Below are positions 4,917 through 8,186 of a stretch of 9,592 bases of DNA, in pieces. The stretch is from a virus. Lineage: Duplodnaviria; Heunggongvirae; Uroviricota; Caudoviricetes. The stretch lies in the IMG/VR virus record IMGVR_UViG_2657245439_000005, one strand, 5' to 3'. Below the pieces are notes generated by a model. It saw only the letters and a list, made by a program, of their open reading frames with translations. It had not been told where the DNA came from and ran no database searches. Position 1 is the stretch's first letter, and every line of letters begins with the position of its first letter. The position numbers and the translations under genes are program-made.

Positions 4917-5480
4917 ATGAGGCTAACCGTGGGTAAGTATCACTGGAAAGTAGAAAAACAGCCTGAGTGGTACGTGAAAGCTGTCAGAAAAACTATCGCA
5001 GCGTTGCCGGGTGGTTACGCTGAAGCAGCTGACTGGCTGGATGTAACAGAGAACGCATTATTTAACCGCCTTCGTGCCGATGGCGATCAGATTTTCCCGC
5101 TGGGATGGGCAATGGTTTTACAGCGCGCGGCTGGCACTCACTACATTGCGGATGCTGTCGCACAGTCTGCTGGTGGGGTGTTCGTATCGCTTCCTGAAAT
5201 TGAGGAAGTAGAGAACGCCGATATAAACCAGCGCCTGCTGGAAGTCATCGAACAGATCGGGAATTACTCAAAGCAGATTCGTTCGGCAATCGAAGATGGG
5301 GTCGTGGAGCCACACGAGCAGACAGCAATTAATGATGAGTTGTATCTGTCAATTTCGAAGCTCCAAGAGCATGCAGCACTGGTCTACAAAATCTTTTGCG
5401 CTCCAGAAAAGAGTGACGCCCGCGAGTGTGCAGCTCCGGGCGTCGTGGCGTTTTGTGTCTGTGGAGAAACTAACGCATGA
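4917..5480 (+). CDS. CII-like / YdaT-family phage regulator (187 aa), in the position of e14 ymfL
   Basis: Second gene after cro. N-terminal segment (PGGYAEAADWLDVTENALFNRLR) looks like a CII-type HTH. Family assignment is from memory. An alternative GTG start at 4929 has a better SD. Stop overlaps the next gene (ATGA at 5477-5480). Confidence 0.65.
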   Translation: MRLTVGKYHWKVEKQPEWYVKAVRKTIAALPGGYAEAADWLDVTENALFNRLRADGDQIFPLGWAMVLQRAAGTHYIADAVAQSAGGVFVSLPEIEEVENADINQRLLEVIEQIGNYSKQIRSAIEDGVVEPHEQTAINDELYLSISKLQEHAALVYKIFCAPEKSDARECAAPGVVAFCVCGETNA

Positions 5481-6313
5481 ACAGTTTAACGGCAAATAAC
5501 CGTTTGTCGCAACAGCTGGTGGTCAGTGTCGCTGAACACCTGTTGTTACGGCATGAATGCAGATTACCAAATCACCTGGCTGTAAGTAACCACAGAGAAC
5601 TTTACCTGACTGTGGGGGGCGAGTTGTGCGGGAACTTAACCGCTGGTTTCGTGACGGAAGAGGGCTTTATGTCCATGTTATTCGTTGGGAACCAGAAACA
5701 CAGCGCGTTATCTATCTTCGCAAAGACTACCCGCATGAGTGCTTTAGTCCTTTGTGGAAATTCAGGCGTGATTTTGTTGAGTGTGAAGGACCACCAGCAC
5801 ATTGATTCTGCCATTCCGGGACGTTACACTGTTCAGGCACCTTATAAAGCGGGTGACGGGATTGGCGTCCTGGAAATGTTATCGGCGATATATGACGCGC
5901 CAGCGTCTTTTTTATCGTCTGCGTCTGTGCACACCCAAATTATGGTGGGCTGGACGGGGGCACCGAAAGGTGCGCCGGTTTCCGATAACGCCGGTTACGC
6001 CAACCCCGTTCAGTTCACCACCAGCGAAATTGGCGTTTCCGGTGGTGAAGGTAATTCACTGTTATCGGAGGCTGCCATCATGGCTACTGTCCCAGCCCTC
6101 ACTCGTCTGAATGATGAAGACTTACATAAACTCAGTTATGTAACAACTGCACTACGTGCTCTGCGCAAGGTAACTCTTTCGGATCCGCAGGCGCATCAGG
6201 TTTTGGTAGAAACCCTTCTTAACTTGCAGGCTGAACGTATTCGTCTGGCGGATAAGGCTAATTTTCATATTCACCGTCTCCTGAATATCAGCGGAGGGCA
6301 TCGTCATGCTTAA
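5477..6313 (+). CDS. Hypothetical protein (278 aa), unassigned
   Basis: Long ORF coupled at both ends (ATGA at 5477; 8-nt overlap with the next gene). Weak GGAG 10 nt upstream. C-terminal half has a Gly/Ala/Pro-rich linker then a helical-looking tail. The N-terminal third is ambiguous because of a competing frame (see findings). Confidence 0.5.
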   Translation: MNSLTANNRLSQQLVVSVAEHLLLRHECRLPNHLAVSNHRELYLTVGGELCGNLTAGFVTEEGFMSMLFVGNQKHSALSIFAKTTRMSALVLCGNSGVILLSVKDHQHIDSAIPGRYTVQAPYKAGDGIGVLEMLSAIYDAPASFLSSASVHTQIMVGWTGAPKGAPVSDNAGYANPVQFTTSEIGVSGGEGNSLLSEAAIMATVPALTRLNDEDLHKLSYVTTALRALRKVTLSDPQAHQVLVETLLNLQAERIRLADKANFHIHRLLNISGGHRHA

Positions 6314-6542
6314 TCCGTTGATCCTCAATATTTGCCGTTTGCTTCAGCGTAAAAAAACATCAATTCCTACAGTTGGGCAGTGGTACACCACGCCTGCAGG
6401 GCATGTTCTACGTGTTAGCCTAGTTGACCGTGAATGTCAGAAGGTGATTTGTGAACCGCTGGGCCGTAATTACCGCATCAGTATGCCGCTTATAGCCTTT
6501 TGCTCCGGAAAAAACATGAAGCATCTCGGAGGTGCAGCATGA
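6306..6542 (+). CDS. Small hypothetical protein (78 aa)
   Basis: ATG at 6306 with GGAGGG 8 nt upstream. Stop overlaps the O-like start (ATGA at 6539-6542). No recognisable motif. Confidence 0.55.
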   Translation: MLNPLILNICRLLQRKKTSIPTVGQWYTTPAGHVLRVSLVDRECQKVICEPLGRNYRISMPLIAFCSGKNMKHLGGAA

Positions 6543-7369
6543 GTATGGAGCTGATGGTTAAAGCGATGAAAATTCGAGTGGGTAATCCATTGCGAAAACT
6601 GGTTCTGATCAAGCTGGCTGATAATGCCAGCGATCAGGGTGAGTGCTGGCCCAGCTACCAGCATATTGCTGACCAGTGCGAGATTAGCAAACGTTCTGTG
6701 ATGAATCATATTGCGGCCCTTTGTGATTCCGGGCTGGTAAAAAAAGTCACCCGGAAAGGTGAAAAAGGTAACTCAAGTAATATCTATCTCCTTCATCTTG
6801 ATGGTGCAGGAGATTCACTAGGGGGTAGTGCAAATAATTCACTATCTGGTGCAGCAAATTCACCAGGTAGTGCAGGAGTTGCACCAGGGGGTGGTGCAGG
6901 AGATTCACCCAGAACCAGTCACTCTTTTGAACCAGTCAAAGAACCAGTCAAAGAACCAGTCAATGAACCAATAGCTGTTGGTGCATCTGCTGATGAGTCT
7001 GTGCGAGTTCGTTCAAACCGACCGGAATACTCTCCGGAGTTTGAGCAGGCATGGCTGGCATACCCCAAACGTGCTGGTGGCAATTCAAAATCTGCAGCCT
7101 TCAAAGCCTGGAAAGCCCGTTTGAATGAGGGGGTAAAACCCGAAACCATGCTGGAAGGTGTGAAACGCTACGCGGGCTGGGTATCTGCGATGGGTAACAG
7201 CGGCACACAATTTGTGAAACAGGCTGTCACGTTCTTTGGTCCGGATCGTCATTTCGAAGAATCCTGGGAAGTTCCTGCGGTATCTGCAGCCAGACGCGAG
7301 GACCCGTACTTCAAAGCCAGTTACGACAACGTGGACTACAGCCAGATCCCGGCAGGATTCAGGGGGTAA
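6539..7369 (+). CDS. O-like replication initiator: N-terminal winged-helix DNA-binding domain, repeat-encoded linker, conserved C-terminal domain (276 aa)
   Basis: ATG at 6539 with GGAGG 7 nt upstream (the ORF from 6500 is an unsupported extension). N-terminus (LRKLVLIKLADNASDQGECWPSYQHIADQCEISKRSVMNHIAAL) is HTH-like. The linker is encoded by DNA iterons. C-terminal WLAYPKRAGGNSKSAAFKAWKA block is typical of phage replication organisers as I recall. Confidence 0.8.
   Translation: MSMELMVKAMKIRVGNPLRKLVLIKLADNASDQGECWPSYQHIADQCEISKRSVMNHIAALCDSGLVKKVTRKGEKGNSSNIYLLHLDGAGDSLGGSANNSLSGAANSPGSAGVAPGGGAGDSPRTSHSFEPVKEPVKEPVNEPIAVGASADESVRVRSNRPEYSPEFEQAWLAYPKRAGGNSKSAAFKAWKARLNEGVKPETMLEGVKRYAGWVSAMGNSGTQFVKQAVTFFGPDRHFEESWEVPAVSAARREDPYFKASYDNVDYSQIPAGFRG
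6802..6910. repeat. Five iteron-like direct repeats (consensus about GGT(AG)GTGCA..A.TTCAC, 21-25 bp period) inside the O-like gene; putative replication origin
   Basis: TGGTGCAGGAGATTCAC occurs exactly at 6802-6818 and 6892-6908, with three degenerate copies between. Same arrangement as lambda ori iterons inside O. Confidence 0.6.
6911..6970. repeat. Tandem 12-bp repeats GAACCAGTCA(A/C)(A/T), about 4.5 copies, adjacent to the iterons
   Basis: Read directly. Encodes EPVKEPVKEPVNEP in the O-like linker. Confidence 0.6.
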
Positions 7370-7371
7370 TC

Positions 7372-7860
7372 ATGAGTCTTTTGAATGAAGTTCAGAAATT
7401 CATTGAAGCCCATCCGGGGTGTACTTCCGCAGACATTGCGGATGCTTTTGCAGATTACTCACGGCAGCGCGTTCTGCAGTCAGCAAGCAAGTTACGTCAG
7501 AGTGGGCGTGTGGCTCACCGTTGTGAAGGAGATACACGCAGACATTTCCCGCGCCTGACTGAGAGAGCGCAAGAGCCGGAACCACAACCAGTTCGTGAAA
7601 CCAGACCTGTGCGCAATTTCTATGTCGGCACTAACGATCCCCGGGTGATTTTATGCCTGACCCGCCAGGCTGAAGAACTGGAGTCGAGGGGGTTATACCG
7701 TCGTGCTGCAACGGTGTGGATGGCGGCATTCCGTGAAAGTCACTCCCAGCCAGAACGAAACAACTTTCTGGCGCGTCGTGAGCTGTGCTTACGGAAAAGC
7801 AGCAAGCGCGCTGTATCTGGTGATGAATGGTATCTGTCAGGGAATTACGTGGGGGCTTAA
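7372..7860 (+). CDS. PerC-like (ANR-type) transcriptional regulator with an N-terminal winged-helix-like domain (162 aa)
   Basis: C-terminal AEELESRGLYRRAATVWMAAFRES matches the PerC-type motif as I recall it. ATG 3 nt after the O-like stop, with a G-rich SD. Confidence 0.65.
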   Translation: MSLLNEVQKFIEAHPGCTSADIADAFADYSRQRVLQSASKLRQSGRVAHRCEGDTRRHFPRLTERAQEPEPQPVRETRPVRNFYVGTNDPRVILCLTRQAEELESRGLYRRAATVWMAAFRESHSQPERNNFLARRELCLRKSSKRAVSGDEWYLSGNYVGA

Positions 7861-8186
7861 TGACGACGTTAACTCAATGCCAGCAGCAGGTGCTGGATAT
7901 GCTGATTTCTTACCAGCAAGAACGTGGCTTTCCGCCAACCAATCAGGAGGTGGCAACCATGCTGGGATACCGTTCGGTGAATGCAGCGGTGGAGCATCTT
8001 CGCGCACTGGAGAAAAAAGGCGTCATCACGATAAAGCGTGGCGTGGCCCGGGGGATAACGCTTCATACCGCGGTGAAGGACGACGACAGCGAGGCGGTCG
8101 GGATTATCCGCTCACTGCTTGCCGGTGAGGAAAACGCCAGGCTGTGTGCAGCCCACTGGTTACATGAGAGGGGCATGAAAGTATGA
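7860..8186 (+). CDS. LexA N-terminal DNA-binding-domain homolog lacking the S24 peptidase domain (108 aa)
   Basis: Residues about 3-70 align with the E. coli LexA N-terminal domain (LT.RQQ.V.D.I......G.PPT..E.A..LG.RS.NAA.EHL.AL..KGVI.I..G..RGI.L). Start overlaps the upstream stop (TAATG); stop overlaps the rusA start (ATGA). The ORF from 7827 is an in-frame upstream extension. Confidence 0.75.
   Translation: MTTLTQCQQQVLDMLISYQQERGFPPTNQEVATMLGYRSVNAAVEHLRALEKKGVITIKRGVARGITLHTAVKDDDSEAVGIIRSLLAGEENARLCAAHWLHERGMKV

Follow-up and report, generated by a model that had tools for sequence, protein, structure and literature searches.

The IMG/VR record IMGVR_UViG_2657245439_000005, a stretch of 9,592 nucleotides (nt) of caudoviricete DNA that is referred to below, at its full length, as the window, represents the early-right region of a lambdoid Escherichia coli prophage that resembles SfV and e14. 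An open reading frame (ORF) of 278 amino acids (aa) in this region had been described as unassigned in an earlier note that was made from the sequence alone. The analysis presented here indicates that the interval covered by this ORF is probably a composite regulatory cassette that works in the manner of the P4 and P1 immunity systems, and not the gene of a single-domain protein. A nested protein gene, a predicted promoter, two RNA elements and an operator are all traversed by the single long frame, and within the part that carries the Pfam domain the sequence varies as expected of RNA rather than of protein.

Gene organization of the locus

The genes of the region occur in the order S24-type CI-like repressor, Cro-like protein, YmfL/CII-like protein, 278-aa ORF, 78-aa ORF, replication initiator, and PerC-like protein. 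The long frame (5477..6313, plus strand) extends from ATG 5477 to TAA 6311-6313 and is an Eta-like spanning frame. Its coordinates, strand, and length were confirmed in the sequence, as was the coupling at both of its ends that the earlier note had pointed out; ATG 5477 overlaps the stop codon of the CII/YmfL-like gene (GCATGA; ATGA coupling), and the stop codon of the long frame overlaps ATG 6306 of the 78-aa ORF (ATGCTTAA). Several complete E. coli genomes contain the DNA of the ORF at 100% identity; it was found in 1,508 of 5,426 genomes, and its length of 278 aa stays open in hundreds of contigs. Moreover, the frame is open from the ymfL stop onward in 66 plus 14 IMG/VR loci, with lengths of 278, 382, 383, 386, or 598 aa and a single exception of 263 aa. 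The long frame is more than a chance occurrence, and the anatomy of the interval that it crosses is visible in the sequence: a nested DUF4222 gene, a predicted promoter, a leader RNA, a C4 antisense RNA, and an a2/b2 operator follow each other, with one frame running through all of them.

The description of the ORF as lacking any recognizable motif did not hold. The Pfam family PF10554 (Phage_ASH, "Ash") matches residues 117-210 of the protein with 63.5 bits against a cut-off of 26, deposits of the protein at NCBI are named "ash family protein" or "phage immunity repressor protein", and the ORF corresponds to orf37 of phage SfV, which is annotated as "immunity region". Profile matches were also obtained with PHROG 3960 and 821, which carry the label "transcriptional regulator", and with phrog_4908, which covers aa 156-278; scanning NCBIfam with the 278-aa ORF, DUF4222, and YmfM gave no matches. 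The current RefSeq model, generated by the Prokaryotic Genome Annotation Pipeline (PGAP), omits the 278-aa ORF and calls a DUF4222 coding sequence (CDS) at 5626-5805 and a 181-aa Ash CDS from GTG 5768, and RefSeq annotates no RNA at this locus.

The predicted promoter and the RNA module within the Ash segment

The span of the Ash domain (nt 5825-6106) coincides with the promoter, the leader, and the C4 RNA, and the isrK and C4 matches both fall within Pfam Ash residues 117-210; the same pair of RNAs is present in every Ash-bearing relative. The predicted sigma-70-like promoter of the RNA module (5802..5830, plus strand) consists of a -35 hexamer TTGATT (5802-5807), a 17-nt spacer, and a -10 hexamer TACACT (5825-5830) that ends 6 nt upstream of the leader start, with the putative +1 at approximately 5837. 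It aligns with P4 PLE and with the position of the isrK promoter of Gifsy-1, which has been demonstrated experimentally (PMC4825925). In the alignment, the hexamers are kept while the spacers differ, reading TTGCCT/TATAGT in P4 and TTGACT/TATATT in the Shiga toxin (Stx) 2a phage JNE202033. The conserved Ash "peptide" IDSAIPGRYTVQ is the translation of this promoter.

The leader (5837..5913, plus strand) matches the IsrK/P4-seqA-like family Rfam RF01394 with 55.4 bits (E value 5.8e-10), by a narrow margin over the gathering score of 50, and the related c4-a1b1 model scored 15.9 bits, below its threshold of 46.7. Five base pairs of the leader display compensatory changes. The leader contains two target boxes on the plus strand, a1 (TTGGCGT, 5862-5868) and b1 (GTTATCGG, 5878-5885), and ends in an intrinsic terminator (5894-5913, plus strand; stem 5894-5907, T6 5908-5913) that was found independently of Rfam.

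A C4/P4-CI-type antisense RNA follows at 5938..6025 (plus strand), matching Rfam RF01695 with 82.8 bits against a gathering score of 45 (E value 1.4e-15) over model positions 1-87 of 87. Among 13 copies, the 27 pairs of the C4 structure were paired in 100% of the 351 cells, and 11 pairs were changed on both sides; none of 500 shuffles reached the observed percentage of pairing or the covariation score, and sliding the 3' partner lowered pairing to 31-48%. The b' loop (UUUCCGAUAACG, 5979-5990, plus strand) and the a' segment (5996-6004, plus strand) of C4 are complementary to a1/b1 in the leader and to a2/b2 in the downstream operator (6030..6071, plus strand), where a2 lies at 6030-6036 (TTGGCGT) and b2 at 6061-6069 (GTTATCGGA). 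On the plus strand of the window, the 7-mer of the a-box and the 8-mer of the b-box each occur at the two expected sites only. The b2 box overlaps the Shine-Dalgarno (SD) sequence GGAGG (6067-6071) that precedes the in-frame ATG 6080, and this nested ATG lies 54 nt after C4. Cognate boxes of differing sequence were found at the same offsets in 13 of 13 modules, including that of P4, and a module matches its own b2 over 9.4 nt on average, compared with 5.0 nt for non-cognate modules. Folding C4 in duplex with its targets melted the internal structure of C4 and was uninformative.

Variation of the module among related prophages

Prophages with the 278-aa type of ORF (Ayreon, an Stx2c phage, and 43 IMG/VR loci) share flanks that are 97-99.6% identical, as compared to 33-90% for the module. 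When single-nucleotide polymorphisms (SNPs) were read in the frame of the long ORF, the ratio of synonymous to non-synonymous changes was 1:18 in the promoter and leader, 1:15 in C4, and 2:13 in the operator, as compared to 10:10 in the nested ORF; leader, C4, and operator together have 4 synonymous and 46 non-synonymous changes, and the spacer 5914-5937, counted separately, has 8 and 15. The excess of synonymous changes that would accompany purifying selection on a protein was looked for in the Ash segment and was not found. The variable patches of the protein alignment are the translated b1, b', and b2, most of which covary; the C4 variants include the window type, DN/EGNSLLS, and the type VC/GSYPLHT. 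Since the changes are almost all non-synonymous and clustered in the RNA boxes, the Ash segment evolves as RNA, and these sequence comparisons argue that it is constrained as promoter and RNA.

In 11 of 12 modules, among them that of P4, the nested ORF can be extended in frame beyond the internal promoter, with no stop codon over the 72-981 nt that lie upstream of it before a start codon is reached. The sole module with a frame that is closed upstream is that of the Stx2a phage JNE202033 (1492-1756), which has a stop codon 21 nt before the leader and no start codon, and represents a natural variant without an Eta-like bridge.

In UTI89 and mEp460 the first ~125 codons (5477-5851) are 98-100% identical to those of the window, followed by complete divergence, which places the recombination joint within the leader RNA; beyond it these relatives have another C4 specificity and a Rha antirepressor instead of the 77-aa tail. 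The Rha-family antirepressor domain (PF09669/TIGR02681) is absent from the ORF of the window and present in the UTI89, mEp460, and Salmonella variants. One IMG/VR locus (L086) carries two tandem isrK-C4 modules (1861-2049 and 2512-2697) with differing specificity boxes in a single 598-aa ORF that has the same N-terminus as the ORF in the window.

The nested DUF4222 gene and the YmfM-like head

The DUF4222 gene (5626..5805, plus strand) starts with GTG, encodes 59 aa, and lies wholly within the long ORF, in its +2 frame. Its product matches PF13973 with 50.9 bits (cut-off 27) and phrog_1343 from end to end, PGAP in RefSeq calls the same CDS, and in most homologues an SD-like GGAGG precedes an ATG. 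Selection in the overlap was assessed in 32 distinct ymfL-linked loci from E. coli, Salmonella, Citrobacter, Enterobacter, Kosakonia, Atlantibacter, and others. The diversity at the three codon positions was 0.25/0.22/0.52 in the DUF4222 frame as compared to 0.32/0.25/0.54 in the ymfL control, a pattern from which it follows that purifying selection acts on the DUF4222 frame and not on the overlapping 278-aa frame; the latter has no visible amino-acid constraint in this region. Population SNPs in the overlap show the same, 3 of 4 being synonymous in DUF4222 and 4 of 4 non-synonymous in the long ORF.

The overlapping YmfM frame is nevertheless stop-free across DUF4222, although synonymous shuffling of DUF4222 leaves it open in only ~3% of cases. 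An A or G at the third base before a codon starting with A would create TAA or TGA in the other frame, and leucine, valine, and isoleucine codons in this context have T or C as third base in 101 of 101 cases, as compared to 72% in safe contexts. The stop-free frame and this codon avoidance argue that selection keeps the YmfM frame open without conserving its residues. Termination-reinitiation at an ATT that overlaps the DUF4222 stop codon was considered and dropped, as the ATT is not conserved in Citrobacter.

The equivalence with the e14 ymfM slot that the earlier note had suggested was borne out by the shared ATGA start on the ymfL stop, by the common first residues MNSLT, and by the position of the frame relative to the conserved block, DUF4222 being nested in the +2 frame in both e14 and the window. 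In approximately 30 loci, the corresponding ORF starts at or near the ymfL stop, crosses the "gap" and all of DUF4222, and has its stop codon 7 nt ahead of the replication gene, giving 108-113 aa; at loci without an adjacent DUF4222, a YmfM-type ORF of 59-65 aa stands alone. The first 50 codons of YmfM have a codon-position diversity of 0.18/0.17/0.30 and 0.19/0.20/0.39 in its two subfamilies, and this third-position excess identifies the N-terminal module as a real coding unit.

In the window, aa 1-50 (5477..5625, plus strand) form a diverged YmfM-like N-terminal coding segment that shares the start context and MNSLT with e14 ymfM. BLASTP of K-12 YmfM (112 aa) against aa 1-89 of the long ORF gave 32% identity (E value 1e-7), but most of this similarity lies where DUF4222 drives conservation; when the YmfM families phrog_1170 and phrog_20047 were compared, phrog_1170 matched the long ORF over aa 48-98 only, and no PHROG family matched aa 1-49 at E values up to 0.01. 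Judged by eye and without statistics, motif similarity of the N-terminus to type-b YmfM is ~45%, and the conserved YmfM motifs PQLRxIPVPG, FRYER, and CNHS are mostly lost in the window lineage. The E. coli, Salmonella, and Citrobacter lineages nonetheless retain both the open frame and the start at 5477 with its ATGA coupling, indels in the N-terminal 50 codons of the window lineage are multiples of three, and population SNPs in 5477-5625 at the IMG/VR loci comprise 6 synonymous and 2 non-synonymous changes. The IMG/VR scan with aa 1-125 retrieved only loci of 98-100% identity, which serve for SNP counts and not for deep divergence. The YmfM-like head is possibly a functional protein part.

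The dual coding extends to K-12 itself, where in the e14 locus (5823-6181) purifying selection acts on DUF4222 and codon choice keeps stops out of the ymfM frame. In e14, DUF4222 starts with TTG and its 3' end extends 20 nt past the ymfM stop. NC_000913.3 (EcoCyc) annotates ymfM alone, as "cell division inhibitor", and PGAP on a K-12 derivative annotates DUF4222 alone in the same place. The ymfM preprint describes filamentation upon expression of the whole ymfM ORF from pBAD24, and reports no frameshift, stop-codon, or western control separating ymfM from the DUF4222 product. This clone includes DUF4222 minus its last six codons. Either YmfM or the nested DUF4222 product is a candidate for the SfiC phenotype of e14, and the dual coding makes it directly testable which of them is the 35-year-old SfiC inhibitor.

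The nested 77-aa ORF and the downstream genes

The nested 77-aa ORF (6080..6313, plus strand; M202 to the end) is in frame with the long ORF, and its GGAGG-N8-ATG start is near-invariant across modules. It is helical, in agreement with the helical tail noticed before, and occupies the position of P4 kil, P1 icd, or the Rha/AnrP antirepressor of relatives. Only 11 clusters among 1.84 billion representatives contain this tail, all in longer called ORFs, and tblastn against phages retrieved SfV-like and Stx2c phages only; the SfV tail is 100% identical to that of the window. A Pfam scan with the 68-aa C-terminal part (M211, 6107) gave no match. The 77-aa tail is a candidate functional protein part.

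The coupled 78-aa ORF (6306..6542, plus strand) is SfV orf38 and belongs to phrog_1153. It runs into the replication initiator, which starts at 6539 in an ATGA overlap, and is weakly DUF4222-like (DUF4222 protein against phrog_1153, E value 0.008; BLASTP, E value 0.03). In the examined loci with a DUF4222-type small gene, that gene directly precedes the replication initiator and extends over the initiator start.

Further downstream, a 119-aa ORF (7827-8186) consists of the LexA DNA-binding domain alone (PF01726, 68.9 bits), without the S24 peptidase part, and takes the place of an N6-adenine methyltransferase in the otherwise similar prophage of strain 144. It may encode a non-cleavable LexA-like regulator or a decoy.

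Interpretation of the cassette and alternative explanations

The reading of the 278-aa ORF as a simple protein gene is not supported. The hydrophobic N-terminal segments that had been noticed are present in the translation (~aa 51-110), but they are the out-of-frame reading of DUF4222, and the Gly/Ala/Pro-rich linker, likewise present, arises from translating the GC-rich stem-loops of C4. A clear match to a characterized regulator of the kind that the earlier note had allowed for does exist, but the element concerned is an RNA system (P4 CI/seqA, P1 c4, Gifsy-1 IsrK).

The cassette would probably operate as follows. In the lysogen, the S24-type CI-like repressor would silence pR, leaving the internal promoter as the only one to fire. 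Most transcripts from this promoter would stop at the leader terminator, and RNA that reads through would be processed to C4, which may then pair with a1/b1 and a2/b2 and block the ribosome site of the nested ORF. Via polarity, the same pairing would keep the downstream 78-aa ORF and the replication genes off, and the variable a/b boxes would set the specificity of immunity. Upon cleavage of the repressor in the SOS response, pR transcripts would appear, carrying ribosomes that ymfL passes on via the ATGA junction; in translating the long frame over DUF4222, the promoter, and the RNA module, these ribosomes could then prevent the RNA structures and pairings, so that transcription and translation would continue into the 78-aa ORF and the replication gene. 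Approximately aa 51-201 of the resulting polypeptide would be a by-product with a sequence dictated by DUF4222 and the RNA.

A more far-reaching proposal, which we regard as tentative and rather doubtful, is that the long frame is a translational bridge with a largely irrelevant amino-acid sequence, across which ribosomes from ymfL pass over DUF4222 and the RNA module, the same bridge being YmfM in e14. A frame selected only to be stop-free would fit the codon avoidance described above. If this proposal were true, the SfiC/YmfM division-inhibition phenotype could belong wholly or partly to the nested DUF4222 protein, and Pfam "Ash" would essentially be a family of translated RNA genes.

Several observations weigh against the interpretation as a P4/P1-like cassette. 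The case for an active promoter, for processing of the RNA, for the sign of the control, and for a translated long frame is made by homology. The promoter hexamers match the consensus at 8 of 12 positions only, and a consensus scan of 5400-6600 called no promoter, so that the case for the promoter rests on the alignment. Non-cognate b1, b', and b2 boxes are combined in proteins P0056, P0058, and P0061 (corresponding to window positions 5876-5885, 5984-5990, and 6059-6066), which could be recombinant immunity-escape variants or assembly chimeras. With respect to the head, the first 50 codons of the window lineage (window/UTI89, Salmonella, and Citrobacter; four sequences from three lineages) have a diversity of 0.13/0.19/0.20 and lack the third-position excess. 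With respect to the tail, BLASTP of the 77-aa ORF against P4 Kil gave no alignment, and the ORF has no similarity to Rha. The openness of the frame across the RNA module may in part be a frozen accident of RNA conservation. Finally, the predicted AlphaFold2 model of the 278 aa has a mean predicted local distance difference test score of 33 (below 50 over aa 1-214, and ~50-67 for the tail only), a low confidence that speaks only weakly for the interpretation, because the underlying alignment was shallow (14 sequences, at least 90% identical).

The sign of the control could also follow Gifsy-1, where the leader RNA activates downstream translation. Under this alternative, which we consider unlikely but the best of those that follow, the read-through mRNA would be inactive, and a short IsrK-like RNA would open the ribosome site at ATG 5942 in trans and activate the nested ORF by coupling. 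It is favored by the isrK match, which is above the gathering score and includes the terminator, and by the in-frame ATG at the 5' end of C4 (5942..5944, plus strand; M156), which is the positional equivalent of the first AUG of Gifsy-1 orf45 (+107 from the isrK transcription start site) and the start used by the 123-aa members of phrog_4908. Moreover, activation and prophage induction have been shown experimentally in Gifsy-1 (PMC4825925). However, the orf45-like frame has no stop codon here and is fused to the nested ORF, the geometry of the a/b boxes is of the P1/P4 type, in which C4/CI represses, and the window has neither an AnrP/Rha antirepressor nor an antQ-like target adjoining the module.

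It is quite improbable that the product acts via its N-terminus as a YmfM/SfiC-like SOS-inducible division inhibitor, or that the 77-aa ORF acts in the manner of P1 Icd or P4 Kil, an explanation that is compatible with the presence of the RNA cassette. The slot and start match e14 ymfM, expression of which causes filamentation (ymfM preprint), the operon is under an S24 LexA-like repressor, and in the related systems the first ORF after c4 of P1, icd, inhibits division and the nested kil of P4 kills cells (PMC8201110, PMC10111431). Against this, aa 1-49 are too diverged to match the YmfM PHROGs and have largely lost the three YmfM motifs, DUF4222 accounts for the similarity over aa 51-98, the 77-aa ORF shows no sequence relationship to Kil, and the e14 phenotype itself may stem from YmfM or from the DUF4222 product.

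That the ORF encodes a genuine 278-aa regulatory protein of the Ash family, an antirepressor or transcriptional regulator to which the RNA motifs are incidental or secondary, is very unlikely. The Pfam score and the label of the PHROG profiles agree with such a protein, as do the open ORF in all relatives, the reported translation of P4 Eta (PMC10111431), and the fusion of the same region to a Rha domain in relatives. These points are outweighed by the 4:46 ratio across leader, C4, and operator with no excess of synonymous changes, by the identity of the conserved peptide with the promoter, by the location of the variation in covarying RNA boxes, and by JNE202033, which has no start codon for its Ash segment. 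Furthermore, the confidence of the predicted structure is very low over aa 1-214, and a sequence search of PDB with the 278-aa ORF found no relative, the best match being a designed coiled coil (E value 0.38). The antirepressor that has been characterized in P4, epsilon, belongs to another family, PF25738.

Least probable of all is the PGAP gene model, with 5477-5625 non-coding, DUF4222 at 5626-5805, and a 181-aa Ash protein from GTG 5768, which is the RefSeq annotation of a genome 100% identical over the ORF, has a well-supported DUF4222 call, and recalls the Ash-Rha ORF of phiP27 that starts only ~7 codons before the promoter peptide, but which leaves unexplained the conserved ATGA start and open frame with indels in threes, the stop-free passage through DUF4222 against codon-usage expectation, and the 6 synonymous to 2 non-synonymous SNPs in 5477-5625, lacks a convincing SD before GTG 5768, and likewise translates promoter and RNA.

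Comparison with known systems

The interpretation as an RNA-based cassette is closest to the immunity region of P4 (PLE - seqA - CI RNA - seqC, eta, kil), which has the isrK and C4 pair in the same order and spacing as the window, a/b boxes at the same offsets, and the conserved nested-ORF start ...GAGGCUGCCAUCAUGGC in common with it. Both have a long frame over promoter and RNA that is coupled upstream and in frame with a nested ORF (65 aa in P4, 77 aa in the window), and both are matched by the Pfam Ash model. With Rfam models, the C4 match in P4 is the CI RNA locus and the isrK match is the seqA leader. In the 138-aa ORF of P4, M74 gives a 65-aa nested product, in agreement with the length of Kil, which we take to be 65 aa. 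In P4 (7888-8175 and 8168-8584, minus strand), PF10554 matches the ORF annotated "cI gene product", which is the eta ORF over the CI RNA, and does not match epsilon; the region of the former encodes the CI immunity RNA. Kil has been described as the nested short form, with full-length Eta being translated only from the upstream promoter by coupling and its translation preventing termination, and a similar design has been noted for the "Bro network" genes of phage-inducible chromosomal islands (PMC10111431). In contrast to the satellite P4, the window belongs to an SfV/e14-like lambdoid prophage that has a CI/Cro switch made of protein, and its cassette is flanked by a cII-like gene on one side and the replication initiator on the other. 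Its long frame begins with a YmfM-like part that runs over DUF4222, and its 77-aa nested ORF is unrelated to Kil; the likeness of the window to P4 is known from sequence.

The P4 epsilon antirepressor was considered as the identity of "Ash" (bioRxiv 10.1101/2021.03.30.437493) and rejected, epsilon being PF25738 and BLASTP giving E values of at least 4.7. A published scheme for the detection of P4 satellites uses PF10554 as the epsilon marker, even though epsilon is PF25738.

The immI region of P1 and P7 (c4 - icd - ant) has C4 with a'/b', a1/b1 upstream, and a2/b2 over the ribosome site of the first downstream ORF, as in the window, and its specificity differs between heteroimmune relatives as it does among relatives of the window (PMC8201110). 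Different from P1/P7, the window has no Ant antirepressor after the small ORF. To our knowledge, no long read-through ORF encloses the module in P1.

Gifsy-1 (isrK-orf45-anrP) resembles the window in having an IsrK-type leader that ends in a terminator, a separate promoter for this leader and a processed RNA behind it, both of which are predicted for the window, and an in-frame AUG ~106 nt from the transcription start site; the position of anrP holds the Rha-family antirepressor in the relatives UTI89, mEp460, and Salmonella phages. In the window, however, a 77-aa helical tail replaces the Rha/AnrP body and the orf45-like frame is fused where orf45 is separate in Gifsy-1, in which regulation is activating (PMC4825925).

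SfV contains the same 837-nt ORF in the same order (cI-cro-orf36-orf37-orf38-replication); orf37 and PF10554 are annotated as protein, whereas the evidence from the window argues for constraint as promoter and RNA. YmfM of e14 stops 7 nt before the replication gene and is not accompanied by an RNA module, whereas the frame of the window continues for another 166 codons and its N-terminal module is strongly diverged.

These comparisons bear on annotation, since thousands of prophages of E. coli, Shigella, and Salmonella, including Stx phages, carry the labels "Ash family protein", "antirepressor", or "transcriptional regulator", under which the constrained information would be a promoter and two RNAs. 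The a/b boxes form a hypervariable specificity cassette in prophages that are otherwise 97-99% identical, implying heteroimmunity at the RNA level and a second gate on the replication genes of lambdoid phages that already have a CI/Cro switch, with relevance for prophage competition and Stx phage induction.

The type of element is already known, being of the P4-CI/P1-c4/IsrK class within an Eta-like ORF. New in this element are its occurrence in a CI/Cro-type prophage at a site flanked by the cII-like gene and the replication initiator, a bridge frame that is fused to a YmfM-like head and overlies a nested DUF4222 gene, a 77-aa tail in place of the Rha antirepressor body, and comparative evidence that the constraint on the Pfam Ash segment is that of a promoter and RNA.

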